From positions 231,832 to 295,831 of IMG/VR virus record IMGVR_UViG_3300023179_004209: a DNA stretch of 64,000 nucleotides. One strand, 5' to 3'. Shown piece by piece: positions 7,586 to 63,717 of this stretch (positions within the stretch are counted from its first letter, which is position 1; the number at the start of each line of letters is the position of its first letter). Position numbers and translations under genes: made by a program. The stretch comes from a virus. Lineage: Duplodnaviria; Heunggongvirae; Uroviricota; Caudoviricetes. The notes beneath the pieces were generated by a model that was given only the letters and a program-made list of their open reading frames with translations, made no database searches and was not told where the DNA came from.

Positions 7586-8197
7586 ATGGGATGTGACATT
7601 CATTTGTATATTGAGTATAAGTCTAAAGATGGATATGATCCTGCATGGCAAGGTTTTGGGGGAAATATTAATCCCGGCCGTAATTACGCAATGTTTGCAT
7701 TGATGGCAGATGTTCGTAACTATTATAGTGACGGAAAATTGCCTGTTTTGGTTGAACGCCGTGGTATGCCTGATGATGCGGGTTATACTGCAACGGATGA
7801 TAACCGAATCTATATTAGTGAAACTAAAAGTGAGGACTATGTTTCTATGGAAACTGCTAAGCGTTGGGTTAAGTCAGGCAGTAGCAAGTTCATCAACGAT
7901 AAGGATGGAAATCCAATTTGGGTTACTAATCCTGATGCACATAGTCATAGTTGGTTGACAACCAGTGAGTTTGAGAGTGTTATCAACAAGTATCTTGAAT
8001 TGGAAGCTGGTTGGCATAAAGTGCGTGTTGAGGAACATAACAAAATGGTTAAGGAAGAGAATATTCAGCCTGATAGTTGGGCTTATGCTCCTCCCTCTAT
8101 GGTTGATGAACCAGAGTATCAAGTTGTATTGGCTAGTTTGAAACGGTTTGAGGAACTTGGATATGATGCTCGTATTGTGTTTTGGTTTGACAACTGA
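7586..8197 (+). CDS. hypothetical protein
   Basis: ORF. Confidence 0.55.
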   Translation: MGCDIHLYIEYKSKDGYDPAWQGFGGNINPGRNYAMFALMADVRNYYSDGKLPVLVERRGMPDDAGYTATDDNRIYISETKSEDYVSMETAKRWVKSGSSKFINDKDGNPIWVTNPDAHSHSWLTTSEFESVINKYLELEAGWHKVRVEEHNKMVKEENIQPDSWAYAPPSMVDEPEYQVVLASLKRFEELGYDARIVFWFDN

Positions 8198-16629: not shown

Positions 16630-17085
16630 ATGAATAAAAATATTAAAACCTGCCCAAATTGTGACGCATATGAAGTAAAAGGTGAATATCATTCTCTTTT
16701 TGGATGCGGTTCTTACTACTCTGATATGCGAATGGGAACGCCTACAATTACAGAGAAACGAGAAGGTTATAGATTTCACGAAACACTACAGTGCGCTCAT
16801 AACAGAATCGCAGTCTTAAATATTAGACTGCGTAAAGTTGAAGAATATGTTAAAAAACAAACAGAAGTTCCAGAAGTTCCAAAACAAACACTAAAAAGTC
16901 TTGAGGAACATAATAACAAAGCATATAACACTTTTGCCGCAGTCAATAACCTCAACTCTGGCTTTGCTTGTCCAAAGTGTGGAGAAGAATTGTATTATTC
17001 TAATCCCAATGTTATGTTGACAACATATCCTCCTAAACGAGGTGTGCAGTGTAACAAGTGCAATCATACAGATTATGTATACTAA
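16630..17085 (+). CDS. Cys-rich (multiple CxxC) protein
   Basis: ORF with 4 CxxC pairs. Confidence 0.5.
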   Translation: MNKNIKTCPNCDAYEVKGEYHSLFGCGSYYSDMRMGTPTITEKREGYRFHETLQCAHNRIAVLNIRLRKVEEYVKKQTEVPEVPKQTLKSLEEHNNKAYNTFAAVNNLNSGFACPKCGEELYYSNPNVMLTTYPPKRGVQCNKCNHTDYVY

Positions 17086-21715: not shown

Positions 21716-23092
21716 ATGAATTTGAACTTTGAAGGTCTCCTTGAACCGCAGAAAAATCACTGCCTCAACCTCCTCTCCAGTCTCTTCACCAACGGATTTG
21801 CATTCGATGCAAGTCCCACTGGCACCGGCAAAACCTACTGTGCGTCATGGGTCGCCAAGAACTACGGTGCTTCCGTTGTAGTTCTCTGTCCCAAGAGTGT
21901 TCAAAAGAACTGGTTTGACACTCTCAAGAGCTTTGGTGTAGATAATCCTATCGTTATGACTTTTGAACGATTGGTTCGTGGTAATACTGAGTATTACAGT
22001 TTCAATATGAGTGATTATCTTAATCGTAAGACTATTTGGAAGTCTGAAGGTATTGAAGTTAACTTCCCCAAGAATAGTCTGGTTATTCTGGATGAAGTAC
22101 ATAAGTGTAAAGGTAAAAAGAGTCTTGCCGGTGAATGTCTTATTGCACTTAAGAATGCTGGATACAAGTTGTTGATGCTTAGTGCCAGTGCTGCTACCAA
22201 TGTTACTGAAATGAAGGCATTTGGTTATGCCACTCTTCTTCATAATGGTTATGGATATTTTGATTTCTGTAAGGATAACGGTGTTGATTTCAACCGTTTT
22301 GGTGCAATGAGTTGGGATGCAGATGCTCGTAAGTGTAAGGATGGTATGCTTCGTATCCATAACACTCTGTATAACACTGTTAATTGTGCCAGCCGAATGA
22401 ATCGTAAGGATTTTGGTGATATCTTCCCAGATAACCAAGTTATTGCCGATTCTTTTGATCTTGGTTCCAATACTTCTAAGTTGAAGTCTGTTTATGCCGA
22501 AATGGAATATGAGTTGATGAATTTGGAGGAGGATTCCAAGGAATATAGTGAACACGTTTTCGCTATTATTATGAAAGCTCGTCGTAATAGTGAAATTCTC
22601 AAGGTTCCTTCTATGGTCAACTGGATTATTGATATGTACCGTGAGGGTATTAGTCCTGTCGTGTTTGTTAATTTCACTGAAACTTTGGAAGCTATTGAAA
22701 AGCGTCTCATTGAATCTGGTGAGTTTACTGGTAAGATCAGTAAGATTGTTGGTGGTCAGTCTCCTAAGACTCGTAATAATGAGATTGAAAACTTCCAGAA
22801 GGATATTACCCGTGTTTGTTTGGTGATGATTCCCGCTGGTGCTGCTAGTGTTAGTCTTCATGACTTGAATGGTAATTATCCCCGTCATACACTGATTAAT
22901 CCTAGTTACAGTGCTATTAACACTCTTCAATCACTTGGTCGTTGTCATCGTGTTAATGGTAAGACTCCGGTGATTCAACGATTCTTCTTTGCTGAAGGTG
23001 TTGAAATTGAACAAAAGATGCGTCAACGAGTTAGTTTGCGTCTGACCAATCTGGATTGTTTGAATGATGGTGATTTTGCTATTAACAATTAA
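21716..23092 (+). CDS. SF2 DExH-box helicase
   Basis: motif I SPTGTGKT, II ILDEVHK, III SASAAT, VI QSLGRCHR. Confidence 0.75.
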   Translation: MNLNFEGLLEPQKNHCLNLLSSLFTNGFAFDASPTGTGKTYCASWVAKNYGASVVVLCPKSVQKNWFDTLKSFGVDNPIVMTFERLVRGNTEYYSFNMSDYLNRKTIWKSEGIEVNFPKNSLVILDEVHKCKGKKSLAGECLIALKNAGYKLLMLSASAATNVTEMKAFGYATLLHNGYGYFDFCKDNGVDFNRFGAMSWDADARKCKDGMLRIHNTLYNTVNCASRMNRKDFGDIFPDNQVIADSFDLGSNTSKLKSVYAEMEYELMNLEEDSKEYSEHVFAIIMKARRNSEILKVPSMVNWIIDMYREGISPVVFVNFTETLEAIEKRLIESGEFTGKISKIVGGQSPKTRNNEIENFQKDITRVCLVMIPAGAASVSLHDLNGNYPRHTLINPSYSAINTLQSLGRCHRVNGKTPVIQRFFFAEGVEIEQKMRQRVSLRLTNLDCLNDGDFAINN

Positions 23093-45530: not shown

Positions 45531-45606
45531 GTCCCTATAGCTCAAACGGATAGAGCATCTGCCTTCTAAGCAGATGATCCAGGTTCGATTCCTGGTGGGG
45601 ATACCA
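45531..45606 (+). tRNA. tRNA-Arg (anticodon TCT)
   Basis: hand-folded cloverleaf. Acceptor GTCCCTA/TGGGGAT with wobbles; D-stem GCTC/GAGC; anticodon arm TCTGC-CTTCTAA-GCAGA; T-arm CCAGG-TTCGATT-CCTGG; A+CCA. Confidence 0.7.
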
Positions 45607-45668
45607 TTTTTTGAACATATTTATAAATTTGTATATATTTATATGTTCAAACTTCTCTAAAAAAGAAG

Positions 45669-45696
45669 TTGATTCTTTGAAAATTTGCGGTAAGAT
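45669..45696 (+). promoter_or_regulatory. promoter TTGATT-N17-TAAGAT followed by the AGTAGTAAGT..GTTCTTT motif
   Basis: one of four promoters in the RNA cluster followed by GTAGTAAGT. Confidence 0.45.
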
Positions 45697-45823
45697 AAAG
45701 AAGTAGTAAGTAATTTGTTCTTTCAGCATGGTGGGAGAAGCACTCCTCTAGAACATCTTCGTATGGCGGAACTGCCTTGACCTTTAATCAAAGGGGGTCA
45801 CCAACGAAAGAAACAAATTACTG

Positions 45824-45852
45824 TTGACAAAAGAATAAATCGTGGTAAGATA
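45824..45852 (+). promoter_or_regulatory. promoter TTGACA-N17-TAAGAT followed by AGTAGTAAGTTCTTTAAAA
   Basis: as above. Confidence 0.5.
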
Positions 45853-45936
45853 AAAAAGTAGTAAGTTCTTTAAAATAAAAATATGAAAGTAAAGGATTAC
45901 TAATCTTTTGCTTATAATGTATAATATATATTCTAT

Positions 45937-46368
45937 ATGGAACATAGTAAACAAAAAGGCAATTTAGGATTTTCTGCAACTCTCAAAGAATTACATAAAC
46001 TTGGATATAATGTATTTACTGAAGTTGGAGATTACTCTAAAATAGATATGATAGTTGAGGTAAAGAATAAATTAATTAAACTTCAAGTTAAATACATTAC
46101 GGATTCAAATGGAAAAGTAACTTTAAACTTACAAAAAAGTGGACCAAATGGGTATAGATACAAGTATACAGAACTTGATATAGATTTGTTCAGTATTTAC
46201 TTACCTACTTTAGATAAAGTAATTTTTGTACCTGCTAAATTAGCTTGTAAGAATACTAAAGCATTTAGCATTAGATTTAATGAAAGTAAAAATCATCAAA
46301 GTAAACATATTAATTATATAAGTGAATTTGAAGATTTAAATAAAACACTAAACAATTTAGTTCTTTAA
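45937..46368 (+). CDS. hypothetical protein embedded in the tRNA cluster
   Basis: ORF; stop codon lies within the GTTCTTTAAAA motif. Confidence 0.5.
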   Translation: MEHSKQKGNLGFSATLKELHKLGYNVFTEVGDYSKIDMIVEVKNKLIKLQVKYITDSNGKVTLNLQKSGPNGYRYKYTELDIDLFSIYLPTLDKVIFVPAKLACKNTKAFSIRFNESKNHQSKHINYISEFEDLNKTLNNLVL

Positions 46369-46375
46369 AATTTAT

Positions 46376-46451
46376 GGGATTGTAGCTCAATTGGCAGAGC
46401 AGTTCGCTTTTAACGAATTGGTTGACGGTTCAAGTCCGTCCGGTCCCACCA
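46376..46451 (+). tRNA. tRNA-Lys (anticodon TTT)
   Basis: GGGATTG..CGGTCCC acceptor; anticodon loop CTTTTAA; T-arm GACGG-TTCAAGT-CCGTC; A+CCA. Confidence 0.7.
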
Positions 46452-46457
46452 TTTAAT

Positions 46458-46532
46458 GGCGTTATCGTCTATCGGCTAGGACACTGGACTTTCACTCCGG
46501 TAAGAGGGGTTCGATTCCCCTTAACGCTACCA
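46458..46532 (+). tRNA. tRNA-Glu (anticodon TTC)
   Basis: GGCGTTA..TAACGCT acceptor; anticodon loop CTTTCAC; T-arm GGGG-TTCGATT-CCCC. Confidence 0.65.
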
Positions 46533-46721
46533 TTTTGTTTGTCCGTTGCTTAAAAGAAACGGAATGGTGGAGGGTAAATAACCAAAACACCCCTAGAGTT
46601 GGAAGTTCTCTTAAAAAACTTCTTGGTTGCGGGGATGAGTCATGGTATACTTTGTTTGTTGGGTGGACAAAGTATTCAATAAACACACCCAACACAATTT
46701 ATATAGTTCTTTAAAATTCAA

Positions 46722-46878
46722 TAGCTGGCGGCAGGTTAGATCTGGGGGTGGCTCATAACCATTCATTAAGTAGGTGCGATTCCTATGCTTCAGCAACCAT
46801 TTGAATGGCTGGGGTTTCAGCAAACGACGAATCCTCATAAGGTTTGTTAAGTGGGGGCAGCACCCATACCAGCTACCA
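46722..46878 (+). ncRNA. tRNA-like / mini tmRNA-like element (acceptor-like stem + T-like arm + CCA; internal GCA AAC GAC GAA TCC TCA TAA)
   Basis: 5' TAGCTGG pairs with 3' CCAGCTA followed by CCA; hairpin GTGGG-GGCAGCA-CCCAT; exact 12-mer of canonical tmRNA tag start at 46820. Confidence 0.3.
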
Positions 46879-46970
46879 TTTACGCCCGGAGAATATCCGA
46901 TCAATACGCAACACGGAAAGAAACCTCCTCTAAAGGGAAACTTGCTAGTAGCGGGCGACGATTTTAGATG

Positions 46971-46998
46971 TTGACAAAACATCAATGTGTGATAAGAT
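46971..46998 (+). promoter_or_regulatory. promoter TTGACA-N16-TAAGAT
   Basis: drives short RNA ending at terminator 47109-47141. Confidence 0.5.
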
Positions 46999-47004
46999 GA
47001 TTTT

Positions 47005-47141
47005 AAGGTTAGTTGAGTCCGTTACCTTAGATTAAAAACTCAACAGTGTTTGATCAGAGCTTCTATAATAAATGATCTCTCGACCAGTAGATAGCTGGTT
47101 ACATTTTCAGTGGTTTTGAAGATAAAACCACTCGGATTTTT
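47005..47141 (+). ncRNA. putative small RNA between promoter and terminator
   Basis: hairpin GTTGAGT..ACTCAAC and terminator hairpin AGTGGTTTT..AAAACCACT + TTTTT; no ORF. Confidence 0.4.
47109..47141 (+). terminator. Rho-independent terminator
   Basis: 9-bp stem + CGGATTTTT. Confidence 0.6.
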
Positions 47142-47166
47142 AGTTAGTTCTTTAACAAAACAATTT

Positions 47167-47252
47167 GCGGGGTGTCAGAAGTCTGGTATCTGGCTACGCT
47201 CATAACGTAGTGCCATTTGGCCTCGGAGGTTCAAATCCTCCCCCCGCTACCA
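47167..47252 (+). tRNA. long-variable-arm tRNA with anticodon CAT (identity uncertain)
   Basis: D-stem CAGA/TCTG; anticodon arm CTACG-CTCATAA-CGTAG; 14-nt variable arm; T-arm GGAGG-TTCAAAT-CCTCC; 6-bp acceptor GCGGGG/CCCCGC; ends ..TACCA. Confidence 0.5.
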
Positions 47253-47258
47253 TTTAGT

Positions 47259-47350
47259 GGCCTCAAGATGTAAGGTGCATGGGGAGACTTATAATCTCTA
47301 TAATCGCTCGATTGGCGTTCTGGGCAGTTCGATTCTGCATGAGGCTACCA
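47259..47350 (+). tRNA. type II tRNA, Leu/Tyr-like body with anticodon loop CTTATAA (apparent anticodon TAT)
   Basis: acceptor GGCCTCA/TGAGGCT; anticodon stem GGAGA/TCTCT; long variable arm; T-loop TTCGATT; A+CCA. Confidence 0.5.
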
Positions 47351-47529
47351 TTTTTGATCGTGTAATGGAATTAGACATACGGATGATGGGTAGCACAAAG
47401 TTACGTTACTTGGAGTGGTTTCCAAGTGTAGTTGAAGCAAATTGTGTCCATCAGACGGGTGCTAGATATAGTCTAACCAACCTTGAAACTAGTTGTGGGT
47501 ATTCCAGTCCCACCACGATCACATTTTAC

Positions 47530-47613
47530 GGGTGTGTGATGTAATGGCAGCCATGCAGCACTCAAAATGCTGTGGAGAAATCCGTGGGGGTTCAAGTCCC
47601 TCCATACCCACCA
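47530..47613 (+). tRNA. tRNA-Leu (anticodon CAA)
   Basis: acceptor GGGTGTG/CATACCC; anticodon arm CAGCA-CTCAAAA-TGCTG; long variable arm; T-loop TTCAAGT; A+CCA. Confidence 0.6.
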
Positions 47614-47660
47614 TTTTTATTGTTCATTGAAAATTAGTAGACGCAAAGTAATTTGTATTT

Positions 47661-48350
47661 ATGTCTTCCAAAATACTACTTATTAGTATGAAAAAGATAG
47701 ATATACAAGAGTTAACAATTGCAACAAAAACATCTATATCATACGCTGAAGTTTTAAAAAAGTTAAGACTGAAGCAAAGTGGTTCAATGCAAAGTCGTAT
47801 TAAGAACGAGATTAAAAATCTTGGACTAGATATTAGTCACTTTACTGGACAAGCGTGGTGTAGAGGTAAAAATTCTTATCAAGACAAAAGAATAAGAAAC
47901 AAATATTCTGATGAAATTATTTTTACTGAAAATAGTAATGTTTCAAACGTTGTAGTAAAAAACAGATTGAAGTCAAATCCAAATTATATACATAAATGTG
48001 AATTATGTTCTATTAAAGAGTGGTATGACCCGTTTGAAAACAAAATCAAACCAGTAAATTTAGAACTTGACCATATAAATGGCAATGAAAGAGATAACAG
48101 AAAAGAAAATTTAAGATTGATTTGTTCTAATTGTCATAGTTTTACTCCTACATATAAAGGGAGAAACATTAATAAAACTTTTAGAAATGGTGAAAAGAAA
48201 ATATCTGATGATGTTTTGATAGAACAATTAAAAACAAAAAACATAAGACAAACTTTAATTTCAGTTGGAATGTCTGCTTCTGGTGAAAATTATGAAAGAT
48301 GTAAAATTTTGAAAAACCAGTTGACAACAAAGAATGATGTGGTAAGATGA
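47661..48350 (+). CDS. HNH homing endonuclease inserted between tRNA genes
   Basis: ELDHINGNERDNRKENLRLICSNCHSF HNH motif. Confidence 0.7.
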   Translation: MSSKILLISMKKIDIQELTIATKTSISYAEVLKKLRLKQSGSMQSRIKNEIKNLGLDISHFTGQAWCRGKNSYQDKRIRNKYSDEIIFTENSNVSNVVVKNRLKSNPNYIHKCELCSIKEWYDPFENKIKPVNLELDHINGNERDNRKENLRLICSNCHSFTPTYKGRNINKTFRNGEKKISDDVLIEQLKTKNIRQTLISVGMSASGENYERCKILKNQLTTKNDVVR

Positions 48351-48351
48351 A
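48323..48351 (+). promoter_or_regulatory. promoter TTGACA-N17-TAAGAT inside the 3' end of the HNH gene, followed by AGTAGTAAGT..GTTCTTTAAAA
   Basis: same architecture as 45824 promoter. Confidence 0.5.
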
Positions 48352-48387
48352 AGAGTAGTAAGTGATGGTTCTTTAAAAACTTTTAGT

Positions 48388-48476
48388 GGGCAAGTGGCGA
48401 AATTGGAGAACCGCAAGGGACTTAAAATCCCTTACATTAGAAACGCTGTGGGTTCGAATCCCACCTTGCCTACCAT
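48388..48476 (+). tRNA. tRNA-Leu (anticodon TAA)
   Basis: acceptor GGGCAAG/CTTGCCT; anticodon arm AGGGA-CTTAAAA-TCCCT; long variable arm; T-arm GTGGG-TTCGAAT-CCCAC; A+CCA. Confidence 0.65.
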
Positions 48477-48499
48477 TTTTTGATAGTTCTTTAACAATT

Positions 48500-48810
48500 T
48501 AAGATAGTGGCGGAACAACAATTAGTTTAGTTGTAACGCACAATATATGGCGTTGAAAAACGTTGTATATTGGTTGGAGTAAGAATCATGGAGGGTAAGT
48601 CTATGGAGAATTTGAGGTCGTTCAACCTCAAATTTGAGCGTATCGGGACCGTAGCTAAAATTTAAATGATAAATCGTAGCCCGTTGTGGGGAAAACAAAA
48701 TCCCATCAGTCATCAACACAAGGAGTAATTACCCGTGTGGACTGTGGATGAATAACCAGTCATGATTAAGAAACTTGGAGGTAATCATTAGTCCTTCCTA
48801 TTTTGATTTA
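48500..48810 (+). ncRNA. uncharacterized structured non-coding segment
   Basis: no ORF; hairpins GAGGTCGTTCAACCTC, CGTTGAAAAACG; preceded by GTTCTTTAACA motif. Confidence 0.25.
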
Positions 48811-48814
48811 ATAT

Positions 48815-48887
48815 GCGGGTCAAGTGTAAAGAGAGCACGTTAGTCTACCAGACTAAAAGGCGAAATGCAAAGTTCGGACCCGCTCCA
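48815..48887 (+). ncRNA. tRNA-like RNA lacking an anticodon loop
   Basis: 7-bp acceptor GCGGGTC/GACCCGC + T + CCA. D-like hairpin GTG/CAC. Middle arm is 6-7-bp stem TTAGTCT/AGACTAA with 3-5-nt loop. T-like hairpin CGAA/TTCG. Confidence 0.35.
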
Positions 48888-48897
48888 TTTTAGTAAT

Positions 48898-48990
48898 GGC
48901 TCTGTGATGTATGGTGCATGGGCAGACTTATAATCTGTATAATCCCTAGATTTGGGTGCTGATAGGGTTCAATTCCCTACGGAGCCACCA
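48898..48990 (+). tRNA. type II tRNA paralog of 47259..47350, anticodon loop CTTATAA (apparent anticodon TAT)
   Basis: acceptor GGCTCTG/CGGAGCC; anticodon stem GCAGA/TCTGT; about 24-nt variable region; T-arm TAGGG-TTCAATT-CCCTA; A+CCA. Confidence 0.5.
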
Positions 48991-49000
48991 TTTTAAATAT

Positions 49001-49112
49001 GGATCAATAGCTCAATTGGTTAGAGCGAAGAACTCTTTCTCTGCTTATAAACTAAAAGTATAAGTAGGAAATAATTCTTGGGTTATCGGTTCAAGTCCGG
49101 TTTGATCCACCA
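49001..49112 (+). tRNA. tRNA gene with about 35-nt insertion in the anticodon loop (possibly CAT anticodon after removal)
   Basis: acceptor GGATCAA/TTGATCC + A + CCA. D-arm GCTC-AATTGGTTA-GAGC. Anticodon stem AAGAA/TTCTT encloses 42 nt beginning CT and ending AA. T-arm ATCGG-TTCAAGT-CCGGT. Confidence 0.5.
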
Positions 49113-54554: not shown

Positions 54555-55076
54555 ATGAATGAACAAACCTATATGAAGCTTGGTGATGTCGTGAAACGTC
54601 CTGTTTTTGATGTAAAAAACATCAACCGTGAAAATCCTCGTTTCAAACATCTGGTGGATAGTTACCAGAAGTGGAATAGTGATAATGATATTGATGAACC
54701 TCGTTCAACATATGAAAATGATATTATTGAATGTCTTGGTCAATATGATTTGGATGGATTTGCACTTGCTCAACATTTGAAGGACTATGTGTATGTTGAG
54801 CCTGATAGTGAACTTGTCCATATTCTGGATGATGTTCTTTTTGTCAAGAGTTCACTTGAACGAGAAATGTTGAGTCAATGGGTTAAGGAAAACTTCTTGA
54901 CCATTCCAGATGATGTAGTTGGTAAGAAGGTTAATGCAAAACAAGGTTTTCGTAAGTATGAGAATCACTACATTACTGGAATTAAGCCAGAAACTTATCA
55001 AGTAACTGTTAGTGATAATCCTAAGAAATACGGTGGTTATATTGTTGGGTTTGAAAATGTAACTTTTGTTGACTAA
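54555..55076 (+). CDS. hypothetical protein
   Basis: ORF behind promoter. Confidence 0.55.
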   Translation: MNEQTYMKLGDVVKRPVFDVKNINRENPRFKHLVDSYQKWNSDNDIDEPRSTYENDIIECLGQYDLDGFALAQHLKDYVYVEPDSELVHILDDVLFVKSSLEREMLSQWVKENFLTIPDDVVGKKVNAKQGFRKYENHYITGIKPETYQVTVSDNPKKYGGYIVGFENVTFVD

Positions 55077-55672: not shown

Positions 55673-56764
55673 ATGAAGATTGACATTCAAAAGGTTGACC
55701 TCACCCAATTTATGGTGCATGAACATTCACTTAATGGTGAAATTGTCCAGTTGATTCAGCCCCAACATATTGGCACTAAATGGCATCAAGACAACAAGCA
55801 TATGCGTAGTGTAATTGTGAATTATGCAGGTGAAGTTATCAGTGCAGGTTTTCCTAAGTTTACCAACTGGGGTGAGAATCCTGATCACTTTCCTGTTCCT
55901 AATTCATTGAAGCATTGCACCGTTGTTGAAAAGCTTGATGGTTCATTGTTGATTGTTAGTAAGTATAATGGTCAATATATTCTACGTACCCGTGGAACTG
56001 TTGATGCTTCTACTATGGCTAATGGTCATGAACTTGAAATTTTCAAGAACACTATTTTATCCAAGTTGGCTGATAACAATGATACTTGGGATTATTCAGT
56101 GCTTTTTGAGTGGTTGTCTCCTATCAACAAGATTGTTTTGAACTACGGTGATGAACCTTCTTGGAGATTGATTGGGTTTATTAACCACATCAACTATTCA
56201 CTTGCACAACAAGATATGTTGGACGCTATGGCTAAGAAGTATGGATTTGATCGTCCTCCTACCTATACTTTTTCTGATGTTCAAGATCTGTTAAAGGATG
56301 TTGACCAATGGAGAGGTAAGGAAGGTGTAGTTGTTTATTCAAAGAATGACCAAATGCTTCACAAGGTAAAGGGTGCTTGGTATCTTGCTCTACATCATAT
56401 GAAGAGCGAGTTGTCAAACATTGAGAAGGTTATAGATGTATGGTTGGAACAGAGTATGCCTGACTATCAGACTTTCTATAGTTATATCTTTACCACCTTT
56501 GATTACGAATTGGCTGAACAGTGCCGTGGTATGATTAGCCGTATTTGTGATGCTAAGAAGGAAGTGGATATGATTGTGGTTGGTATGAATGAATTTGTGA
56601 ATAACAGACTCAAGACTCTACCTACTCGTAAGTTACAGGCTGAACAAGTAATTTCAGCTTATGGTAATACTAATAGAGCTTCATTTTTGTTCAAGTTGCT
56701 TGATGGTAAGTCGTTAGGCAAAGAAGAATATAAGAAGTTACTATTTCAAGTATTGAAAAACTAA
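55673..56764 (+). CDS. ATP-dependent RNA ligase, T4 Rnl1-like
   Basis: motif I EKLDGSLL (KxDGS as in T4 RnlA KEDGSL); later EGVVVYSK and HKVKGAWY. Confidence 0.6.
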   Translation: MKIDIQKVDLTQFMVHEHSLNGEIVQLIQPQHIGTKWHQDNKHMRSVIVNYAGEVISAGFPKFTNWGENPDHFPVPNSLKHCTVVEKLDGSLLIVSKYNGQYILRTRGTVDASTMANGHELEIFKNTILSKLADNNDTWDYSVLFEWLSPINKIVLNYGDEPSWRLIGFINHINYSLAQQDMLDAMAKKYGFDRPPTYTFSDVQDLLKDVDQWRGKEGVVVYSKNDQMLHKVKGAWYLALHHMKSELSNIEKVIDVWLEQSMPDYQTFYSYIFTTFDYELAEQCRGMISRICDAKKEVDMIVVGMNEFVNNRLKTLPTRKLQAEQVISAYGNTNRASFLFKLLDGKSLGKEEYKKLLFQVLKN

Positions 56765-61309: not shown

Positions 61310-61786
61310 ATGTCAAAACCATACATTCACGCTCAAAGTTCCGTCCGTAAATTCGGCGGTAAACCAGAAGATTATGAACCCATACACGCTTTTATGGATT
61401 GTAGTAAGGGTGCAATTGCGGATAACCGACATCGTGCTCTAACACACAATAGTTGGTTTCTTAGTAATATTCTGGAACGAGTAAAATTTGCCAATAGTGG
61501 ACCAGAAACCAGTGATCATCGTTTTCCTACCATTATCAATAGTGATGGACGTAGTGTGAGTGTACGGGACATTGGTGAACAACATTGTTTGGAAGACTTT
61601 GCTAATAAGTTTATTCCTTCAGCACAAGATTATCTGGCTGAAATGGAGTTCAAGAGTTGGATGCAGAATGGCATTTCACATCCTCCTAGCTTTGTCAAGA
61701 TTGATGAAGGTCGTAAATCCCGTGCTAAAAATGGTTTGACTTCTAAAACTTTCGGTGGTAGTATCAAAAATGTAATTGGAGATTAA
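61310..61786 (+). CDS. hypothetical protein
   Basis: ORF behind promoter. Confidence 0.55.
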   Translation: MSKPYIHAQSSVRKFGGKPEDYEPIHAFMDCSKGAIADNRHRALTHNSWFLSNILERVKFANSGPETSDHRFPTIINSDGRSVSVRDIGEQHCLEDFANKFIPSAQDYLAEMEFKSWMQNGISHPPSFVKIDEGRKSRAKNGLTSKTFGGSIKNVIGD

Positions 61787-61799
61787 TAAAACAAAACAT

Positions 61800-62186
61800 A
61801 TGAAAGAATCACTTAAGAAAATTGAAGAGCTAAAGAATCAACTCAACACAGTTAAGTCAGAACTCCAGAATGAGTTTAAGGCTGAACTAAAGAAGATCTT
61901 TGTTGATAATCCTACACTGGACAGCATTGAGATGTATCTTAATAACCACGAATTTAACGATGGTGGCGCAACCTCATTCTATATTGGATATGAAGATCTC
62001 AAGATTGTAGTAGAAGGTGAAGAAGTTGAACGTGAGTGGGATAATGCAACGAAGGAATATAAACCAAATCCAGTGCTTGAATCACTAATTGAACTTTTTG
62101 GTGATGTTCAGTGTATCCATGAAGACCTATATGGTGATGAATATGAACATCTATCTATTACCCGTGAGGACGTTCTAAACTATTAA
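61800..62186 (+). CDS. hypothetical protein
   Basis: internal ATG. Confidence 0.5.
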   Translation: MKESLKKIEELKNQLNTVKSELQNEFKAELKKIFVDNPTLDSIEMYLNNHEFNDGGATSFYIGYEDLKIVVEGEEVEREWDNATKEYKPNPVLESLIELFGDVQCIHEDLYGDEYEHLSITREDVLNY

Positions 62187-62582: not shown

Positions 62583-62819
62583 ATGTTTAGTAATAAAAAT
62601 ATTGTAAAGTATTGTGCAAAGTATTTTGTTCTTTTGACGGTGGGTGCTTACGTTTTTAACACATCCGTAATATTCATTAATCAAAAGAGTGACGTTGCAA
62701 ATCTTATCGGGTCCGCACTTTTTGCTGGACTTTTCGTTGGGACGCTGTTAATCTTAAAAAGTGATGTGACCAAGTTGGTCAAGAACATCAACAAAACTGA
62801 AAATAAAGAAAATGAATAA
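62583..62819 (+). CDS. small membrane protein (2 TM)
   Basis: hydrophobic segments. Confidence 0.45.
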   Translation: MFSNKNIVKYCAKYFVLLTVGAYVFNTSVIFINQKSDVANLIGSALFAGLFVGTLLILKSDVTKLVKNINKTENKENE

Positions 62820-63717
62820 GAAAATCGTTAGTCTGATTGCTAGTGTCGTCGCCATCGCCGCCTTTACTGGTTGTGATCGGGTTGAACCGGGATATGTTGG
62901 TATTAAGGTGAACCAGTGGGGTAGTCAGAAAGGAGTCAATGATTTTCCGTTGGTTACTGGTGGTGTGTTCTACAACCCCATCACTGAGGACATCTACAAG
63001 TTCCCAACCTTTATGCAAAATGCTGTGTGGGATCGTGAACGTGGTAGTAAGGAAAGTCCCGGTGATGACAGTGTGACCTTTAATAGTATTGAAGGTGCTG
63101 TTGTTAATGCTGACATTGCTCTTGCTTATACGTTTGTGGCAGAGAAAGTTCCTCAGATCTTTGTTGAATTCCGTCAGTCACCAGAGATTATTACTCATGG
63201 ATTTATGCGAAATGAGATTAATAACGCATTCAACCGTGTTGCTAGTACCATGAAGGCTAGTGATATCTTTGGTGAGAGAAAGCAGTACCTTCTTGACAAT
63301 GTTAAGAGTAATCTTAACGCACAACTTGGTCCCAAGGGATTTAGGTTTGAATTGATCAGTTTCCATGGTGGTCTTCGTGTTGATCAGAGTGTTCAGACCC
63401 GTATCAACGCAGTCCTAGAGGCTAGTCAAAAGGCTATTGAAGCTGAAACCAAGGTTCGTCAAAGTAAGGCTGAGGCGGATCAAGTGATTGAAAAGGCCCG
63501 TGGTGAGAAGGAAAGTAACATTGCTAAGGCAGAGGGTGAAGCACGTAGTATTGCTCTTAAGGCAGAAGCACAGTCCAAGGCTAACTTGGTTTTGGCTCAG
63601 TCTCTAACCCCGGCACTGGTTCAGTATGAAGCTCTTCAGAGGTGGGATGGTAAGTTGCCGGTATATAATGGAGGTGGTGTTGTACCGTTCGTTAACATTG
63701 GAAACACCAACCGATAA
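62812..63717 (+). CDS. SPFH/band-7 domain lipoprotein (HflK/C-prohibitin-like)
   Basis: lipobox AAFTGC; C-terminal Ala/Glu/Lys-rich coiled coil QVIEKARGEKESNIAKAEGEARSIALKAEAQSKANLVLAQ. Confidence 0.55.
   Translation: MNKKIVSLIASVVAIAAFTGCDRVEPGYVGIKVNQWGSQKGVNDFPLVTGGVFYNPITEDIYKFPTFMQNAVWDRERGSKESPGDDSVTFNSIEGAVVNADIALAYTFVAEKVPQIFVEFRQSPEIITHGFMRNEINNAFNRVASTMKASDIFGERKQYLLDNVKSNLNAQLGPKGFRFELISFHGGLRVDQSVQTRINAVLEASQKAIEAETKVRQSKAEADQVIEKARGEKESNIAKAEGEARSIALKAEAQSKANLVLAQSLTPALVQYEALQRWDGKLPVYNGGGVVPFVNIGNTNR

Follow-up and report, generated by a model that had tools for sequence, protein, structure and literature searches.

A phage tRNA with a long variable arm and a UAU anticodon, probably an isoleucine tRNA for AUA codons

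In textbooks, a long variable arm marks a tRNA as one for Leu, Ser, bacterial Tyr or Sec. To our knowledge, the exceptions are the nematode nev-tRNAs and the bacterial allo-tRNAs, both of which are linked to mistranslation. A 93-nt tRNA gene in a 64,000-nt stretch of viral DNA (the window) combines such an arm with an isoleucine anticodon, UAU. The gene, copy B or 'B type', lies at 48898-48990 on the + strand. The window has a GC content of 33% and encodes a helicase, a T4-type RNA ligase (55673-56764), a transposase, HNH and PD-(D/E)XK endonucleases, an adenylate cyclase and ankyrin proteins; its make-up suggests a portion of a large genome from an uncultivated phage. Close relatives in metagenomes number in the thousands and include a 196-kb contig. 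A search of cultured phages with the helicase protein returned Rhodothermus phage RM378 (25%) as its sole match and no close cultured relative.

The gene and its long-armed family

Copy B was recognized by ARAGORN, Rfam and a covariance model of its own family. ARAGORN called tRNA(tat) genes at 48898-48990 and at 47259-47350, and the Rfam tRNA model (RF00005) gave copy B 39.3 bits against a gathering score of 29 (E=8.6e-5 over the whole window). The gene reads GGCTCTG-TG-ATGT-ATGGT-GCAT-GG-GCAGA-CTTATAA-TCTGT-ATAATCCCTAGATTTGGGTGCTGA-TAGGG-TTCAATT-CCCTA-CGGAGCC-A-CCA, and the parts named in the original prediction were found in place: a 7-bp acceptor stem GGCTCTG/CGGAGCC (48898-48904/48980-48986) with one U6-G67 wobble, the discriminator A73 (48987) with an encoded CCA end (48988-48990), an anticodon arm made of the stem GCAGA/TCTGT and the loop CTTATAA (48922-48938), and a T arm TAGGG-TTCAATT-CCCTA (48963-48979), all on the + strand, as is the D arm (48907-48919). 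The variable region (48939-48962, +), foreseen as about 24 nt long, is 24 nt and consists of an ATAA linker, a stem (U)CCC/GGG(U), a loop TAGATTT and a 3' linker GCTGA. The anticodon (TAT, 48929-48931, +) is UAU because the Rfam alignment puts CUUAUAA in the canonical loop register, with the cmscan posterior at '*' across the loop. It stayed TAT after covariance-model alignment and the score lies above threshold, the two points on which the prediction had been staked. Copy B is a real tRNA gene, far beyond chance.

A second, diverged long-armed UAU gene had also been proposed, and it is present as copy A ('A type', 92 nt) at 47259-47350 (+), supported by ARAGORN, the family model and the alignment. 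The two copies have the D arm, the anticodon loop and the design of the variable arm in common; the acceptor stem, the T arm and the stem pairs differ. Copy A falls under the generic Rfam tRNA threshold and is identical in 9 loci. Across 8 independent viral contigs copy B keeps 99-100% identity, against 56-95% in the flanking 200 nt, a mark of strong purifying selection on the gene.

Pattern scans of viral contigs yielded ~45 contigs carrying a gene of this kind, all uncultivated, on which ARAGORN called tRNA(tat) genes of 90-95 nt; together they hold 17 distinct sequences. The family covariance model (R1) was built from 12 of these, leaving 5 outside training. It returned 24 matches at 75-105 bits, including the 5 untrained sequences, with copy B at 102.3 bits and copy A at 92.7 bits, and scored all other tRNAs (343 kb) at 45.5 bits or less. 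The family is sharply bounded. In species-representative bacterial and archaeal genomes, a pattern scan gave 29 matches, 2 of them family tRNAs, both on short phage-like contigs in MAG bins; at the others the matched site is not within a called tRNA. Among cultured phages (INPHARED), DNA searches at near and distant range with the cluster and two family members found no such tRNA. As far as seen, the family is restricted to phages. No protein gene common to the flanks of distant members was found within ~5 kb.

The cloverleaf is well supported by comparison of the 12 distinct members, where pairing holds in 94.3% of cells and both sides have changed in 19 of 25 pairs. None of 500 shuffled controls reached the family pairing values, and shifted registers pair at 32-44%. 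Covariation takes in the complete acceptor stem (seven pairs) and anticodon stem (five pairs), four of the five T-stem pairs and a fifth helix, that of the variable arm, where pair 50:60 is CG, GC, UA or AU between two invariant C:G pairs. The T-stem pair 68:84 covaries, and the acceptor branch is therefore 7/5. Set against these changing stems, a few elements are near-invariant across the 17 sequences: the anticodon UAU within a loop C/U-U-U-A-U-A-A/C, A73, the AUAA that follows the anticodon stem, the variable-stem core C-N-C/G-N-G and its loop UAGAUU. The proposal that the anticodon loop is held by selection is borne out in that CUUAUAA or a near variant, always with UAU, occurs in all 17 while the stems have diverged by compensatory changes. 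Scanned for on its own, the variable arm occurs in UAU tRNAs only; the other 2 matches are chance hits in non-tRNA sequence without a called tRNA.

Members fall into two subgroups. One (C, D, G, H, I, M and N) has the canonical U8-A9 and a D arm UAGCUCAAYGGYAGAGC or UAGUUUAAYGGUAGAAC, the former found in half of the long-armed family, with generic Rfam tRNA scores of 61-64 bits. In the other (A, B, E, F, J and L), to which the two copies of the window belong, the D loop is short, position 8 is A or U, and an additional G stands ahead of the anticodon stem. By the definition of class II as a variable region of at least 10 nt with its own stem-loop, copy B belongs to that class, with 24 nt and a covarying helix. 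The class II core, however, consists of a 3-bp D stem and only 1-2 unpaired nucleotides ahead of the variable stem, and it is absent: the D stem is 4 bp, and the variable stem is preceded by four unpaired nucleotides (AUAA) and followed by 4-5. The body of copy B thus looks like a class-I-like 7/5 cloverleaf, with a hairpin and its linkers (~19 extra nt) apparently inserted in the variable loop. A pairing between the variable loop and the anticodon arm, favoured by the minimum free energy (MFE) fold of copy B, was dropped, as it is not conserved in other members. When the tRNA body was compared with its nearest neighbours among 263 phage tRNAs, a weak test, the ancestry signal was mixed and uninformative and showed no Leu affinity.

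A second odd group of UAU tRNA-like sequences, not called by ARAGORN, was seen in related contigs (L084 3190-3274, L106 4863-4947, L089 2217-2300, L101 1536-1621 and L109 3691-3774). These have a 7-bp acceptor, ~7 nt in place of the D arm and the loop CUUAUAA, followed by AUAAUCG..., a ~28-nt extra region with a GG hairpin and a short T arm. Their family-model scores are 35-39 bits.

The tRNA cluster and its other unusual members

Both copies lie in a tRNA cluster at 45531-49112 (+) that runs Arg(UCU), Lys(UUU), Glu(UUC), an initiator-like CAU tRNA with an extra arm, UAU copy A, Leu(CAA), Leu(UAA), UAU copy B and a CAU tRNA with a 35-nt insert. This gene order is kept in relatives, and structured spacers separate the genes. 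The cluster is a mobile-element hotspot: genes for a PD-(D/E)XK endonuclease (45937-46368, +) and an HNH endonuclease (47661-48350, +) lie inside it, and the cluster of a relative carries a group I intron (L016, 8293-8478; Rfam 71.4 bits).

A consensus scan located a putative promoter, TTGACA-N16-(TG)TAAGAT, at 48321-48348 (+), with 10/12 matches and an extended -10 TG. The same module occurs in three identical copies (45824, 46971 and 48321), each upstream of a cluster block. Downstream of the third lie Leu(UAA), a 420-nt spacer and copy B, and no terminator-like site was found between this module and 49112. The module is therefore a likely transcript start for Leu(UAA), the spacer, copy B and the next tRNA. 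Two TATAAT-like boxes within copy B were rejected as promoters, since other family members are without them.

The spacers hold RNA-motif matches of their own (46533-46640 and 48492-48716, +), to wcaG at 32 bits (gathering 42) and manA at 17.9 bits (gathering 55), both sub-threshold, and several inter-tRNA spacers end in ...ACCATTT, as tRNAs do. The wcaG and manA RNA motifs are known near tRNAs in phage and cyanobacterial contexts.

Other tRNAs of the cluster and of related arrays depart from the usual forms as well. The CAU tRNA after copy B (49001-49112, +) scores 55.1 bits with Rfam. Its ortholog in L002, L005, L007, L008 and L012, likewise located after copy B, is a tRNA(CAU) of 76 nt; the window gene is interrupted between C34 and A35 of the anticodon by a 35-nt insertion, TTTCTCTGCTTATAAACTAAAAGTATAAGTAGGAA, that contains a 6-bp hairpin. 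At this length the insert cannot be a group I intron, and it may represent a mini-intron or an insertion that inactivates the gene. Relatives also have tRNA matches of 102-123 nt (L010 8684-8806 and 8225-8326, L016 9502-9612, L087 9234-9350 and L022 9049-9154). The initiator-like tRNA (47166-47252, +), TGCGGGG...CCCCGCTACCA with anticodon CAU, has a 14-nt variable arm, TGCCATTTGGCCTC, and its orthologs in L002, L004 and L008 are ordinary, at 77-79 nt. Related arrays include Pro(UGG), Thr, Asn(GUU) and Met tRNAs with long arms (L017 697-784, L022 1792-1878, L088 3104-3194 and L084 2501-2590). The window's own Leu tRNAs are normal, at 84-88 nt; class-I-shaped Leu tRNAs (76-78 nt, A73; anticodons CAA, UAA, UAG, CAG and AAG) were found in L002 (1969-2045 and 2127-2202) and in many other loci. 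Two related contigs carry a tmRNA with the tag peptide ANKKSKVISYNFTSKKTSKKSGLALAA beside near-complete tRNA sets (L006 1678-2077 and L013 5990-6389).

Probable isoleucine identity and the meaning of ATA

Taken together, the sequence data indicate that copy B is probably a functional phage tRNA that reads AUA and would be charged with isoleucine by the host IleRS. The identity set of E. coli IleRS was reportedly worked out by Nureki in 1994. Its determinants in the anticodon loop are A35, U36, A37 and A38, to which A73 is added, and those in the body are C4:G69, U12:A23 and C29:G41. Copy B has A35, U36, A37, A38 and A73. In the family, all 17 sequences have U36, A37 and A73 and, after allowing for a MAFFT shift of two K-type rows, A35; A38 is found in 15, with C in L117 and L118. 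The body determinants, which are of the E. coli type and may not be those of the host, are less uniform: U:A at alignment columns 12:23 in 12/12 members, C4:G69 in 8/12 (copy B has U4:A69) and C29:G41 in 1/12. A1:U72 occurs in two of these 12 sequences, D_L017 and G_L026.

The arrays themselves offer a close comparator. In L014, L019 and L029-L031, the slot after Leu(UAA), copy B's slot here, is taken by an ordinary 77-nt tRNA-Ile(UAU). Such class I tRNAs (L014, L016 and L019) agree with copy B in the anticodon, the loop CUUAUAA, A73, the 7/5 branch and the position in the cluster, and presumably do the same job, reading AUA without lysidine. Phage T4 tRNA-Ile and Mycoplasma mobile tRNA-Ile2(UAU) are further ordinary class I comparators. 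Where these have a variable loop of 5 nt, the long-armed family has 23-24 nt that include a conserved hairpin, and the subgroup of copy B has a 5-nt D loop, an extra nucleotide before the anticodon stem and often A at position 8. Tyr(GUA), Ile(GAU) and Leu(UAA) tRNAs co-occur with the long-armed tRNA(UAU) in L026, L110 and L117. It counts against isoleucine charging that UAU tRNAs are reportedly charged poorly by E. coli IleRS (Taniguchi, 2013) and that no IleRS is known to take a long-armed tRNA, as does the scarcity of C29:G41 and the U4:A69 pair of copy B.

What the phage proteins take ATA to mean can be read from codon replacements. ATA makes up 328 of the 1163 Ile codons in the window (28%). 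A search with the cyclase gave only relatives of 75-96% identity, and the ATA-rich genes are without a Pfam family, so no distant homologs were at hand for a Codetta-like test; replacements within the family were used instead. Window ORFs were aligned to 50 related loci and each alternative codon was counted once per site; the alignments use the standard code, and the relatives compared carry the same tRNA. At 187 ATA sites the alternatives were ATT 48, ATC 27, GTA 24, GTT 12, TTA 12, ATG 11, TTG 6 and CTT 6, giving a profile of I 0.41, V 0.22, L 0.16 and M 0.06. This matches the profiles of ATT (I 0.44, V 0.24, L 0.10) and ATC (I 0.56, V 0.21, L 0.09) and differs from those of TTA (L 0.59, I 0.11), ATG and TAT. 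Third-position changes of A to T or C at ATA are ~5x commoner than the same changes at the first position, and ATA-to-ATG is infrequent next to synonymous transitions, TTA-to-TTG for one. Given this third-position bias and the rarity of ATA-to-ATG, ATA acts in the phage proteome as an isoleucine codon rather than one for Leu, Met, Tyr or Ser; the residue could, however, be delivered by the host tRNA-Ile2 or the phage CAU tRNAs.

Use of ATA across genes tracks that of TTA (rho 0.54) and AGA (rho 0.51), other codons read by phage tRNAs. Seven genes (7586-8197, 16630-17085, 21716-23092, 54555-55076, 55673-56764, 61776-62186 and 62812-63717), among them those of the helicase, the RNA ligase and an SPFH protein, are nearly without ATA (1 codon), TTA (6) and AGA (8), which elsewhere in the window account for 31%, 39% and 68% of their codon families. 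This suggests two expression or origin classes of genes, one of them independent of phage tRNAs, although the split was defined by ATA and TTA use itself and is hence partly circular.

Other identities have to be weighed against isoleucine, beginning with the tRNA-Tyr kinship implied by the original prediction. Bacterial tRNA-Tyr(GUA) is a class II tRNA that has the long variable arm, A73 and G1:C72 in common with copy B, and the anticodon stem of copy B does equal that of E. coli tRNA-Tyr except for the last pair. The likeness is not shared by other members, which have GGAGA, CAACG, GCAGU, GCGUG, CCAGC, CUAGC and CGCGU in this place. A coincidence is indicated because the stem covaries freely and related phages carry true tRNA-Tyr(GUA) in the same arrays (L017, L026, L110 and L117). 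Moreover, copy B has UAU instead of GUA and lacks U35, the main TyrRS determinant, and its D arm is class-I-like with a 4-bp stem. A degenerate tRNA-Tyr or a pseudogene with a mutated anticodon, for which the modest Rfam score might also speak, is scarcely credible in the face of strong purifying selection, unbroken helices and extensive covariation, and we consider this reading refuted by the comparative data. Nearly as improbable is a serine-accepting missense tRNA of the allo-tRNA kind. The (8/4) allo-tRNAs, reported from Clostridia, Proteobacteria and Acidobacteria, resemble copy B in the long variable arm, the metagenomic discovery and the anticodon, UAU being one of their predominant anticodons, and are defined by a branch of 8/4 or 9/3, a discriminator G73 or U73, a D stem that is long and capped by a tetraloop, and an extended anticodon stem (Mukai 2017, PMC5389517). 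The single-sequence MFE fold of copy B does have an 8-bp acceptor and a 4-bp T stem. That fold is rejected by the family covariation, in which the fifth T-stem pair covaries, the branch is 7/5 and position 8 is A or U and mostly unpaired. The discriminator is always A and never G or U, the anticodon stem is 5 bp, the D stem is 4 bp with a 5-8-nt loop, and Ser codons account for 4 of 183 ATA replacements. With both the 8/4 structure and G73/U73 absent, copy B is not an allo-tRNA, and the serine reading is largely refuted.

A leucine-charged missense tRNA deserves more attention, though we consider it unlikely. Its model is the eukaryotic nematode nev-tRNA-Ile(UAU), which clusters with tRNA-Leu(UAA), shares its D and variable arms and is leucylated in vitro (Hamashima 2012, PMC3333845). 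In a phage analogue, the class II shape and A73 would attract LeuRS, which ignores the anticodon, and AUA would be read partly as Leu. A73 with a long arm is indeed a feature of class II tRNA-Leu, UAA is a single change away from UAU, and Leu makes up 16% of the replacements at ATA sites, against 10% at ATT and 9% at ATC. A small Leu excess is nevertheless expected, because ATA and TTA are single-step neighbours, and ATA swaps with ATT or ATC ~5x oftener than with TTA or CTA, with mutation types held equal. The alignment of both paralogs with Leu(UAA), which the original prediction had suggested as a check and which here also took in Leu(CAA), revealed conservation between the paralogs, described above, and no D or variable arm in common with the Leu tRNAs of the window; a Leu-derived tRNA of the nev type was rejected on this ground. 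The phage tRNA differs from nev-tRNA in its class-I-type D arm with a 4-bp stem, which also sets it apart from the phage Leu tRNAs of the same arrays, in a variable arm unrelated to Leu arms and in that ATA acts as isoleucine. Since relatives have class-I-shaped Leu tRNAs, arm and identity are uncoupled in these phages. The remaining reading concerns purpose more than identity: a non-translational or defence tRNA. It could act as a decoy or as a replacement that resists nucleases, its arm blocking a host enzyme that cleaves tRNAs or marking self for a phage nuclease. Defence nucleases that cleave the variable or anticodon loop of tRNAs have been described (PMC13096335, PMC10264068), and such defences are common. 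Other normally class I tRNAs in these arrays are long-armed too, namely the initiator-like tRNA here and Pro, Thr, Asn and Met tRNAs in relatives, and the window encodes the T4-type RNA ligase. A pure steric shield, however, would need no invariant loop tied to one anticodon, and the other long-armed tRNAs have arms of unrelated sequence. As defence is also compatible with normal decoding, it would add to an isoleucine tRNA rather than replace it, and as an explanation on its own it has a small chance.

A possible role of the arm in AUA decoding

If copy B is an isoleucine tRNA, its working may be outlined as follows. It would be co-transcribed with neighbouring tRNAs from the sigma-70-type phage promoter at 48321, trimmed to a tRNA that already ends in CCA, charged with Ile by the host IleRS and used to decode AUA for the AT-rich majority of phage genes, in the company of phage decoders of other A-ending codons (AGA, AAA, GAA and UUA). 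Because its loop and the AUAA are conserved across diverged lineages, and only with UAU, the arm is most likely a sequence-specific handle tied to AUA decoding, a role that we favour on comparative grounds over that of a general steric shield. The handle might provide an extra contact for the aminoacylation of a U34 tRNA-Ile, or it might serve as a determinant or anti-determinant for a wobble-modification enzyme that keeps U34 off AUG. A SpoU-family RNA methyltransferase and a second methyltransferase are encoded in the 196-kb relative (L119 19400-19930), with no homolog in the window; they are possible tRNA-modifying partners of the long-armed tRNA. We tentatively suggest that the arm could be a new kind of determinant, for identity or for modification, whose UAGAUU loop is recognized by a host or phage protein, and that phages could thus deploy a U34 tRNA-Ile for AUA in lysidine-dependent hosts; in a rarer variant, Leu charging would make AUA ambiguous during infection.

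Our full-text literature searches turned up no description of a phage tRNA-Ile with a long variable arm. Closest to it come nev-tRNA-Ile(UAU) and allo-tRNA(UAU), and copy B belongs to neither. In contrast to those tRNAs, a class II-shaped tRNA with an Ile anticodon is here under strong purifying selection in many phage lineages, while ATA still behaves as isoleucine. Generic tools score such genes low or name them by the anticodon alone, which matters for annotation. Long-armed initiator, Thr, Asn and Pro tRNAs together with short-armed Leu tRNAs suggest that phage arrays explore tRNA architectures that cells do not. AUA decoding is a classic weak spot of the genetic code, and an arm sequence tied to one anticodon points to an undescribed recognition element at this spot. 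If this is true, a class II-shaped tRNA-Ile would be a third solution to the problem of telling AUA from AUG.
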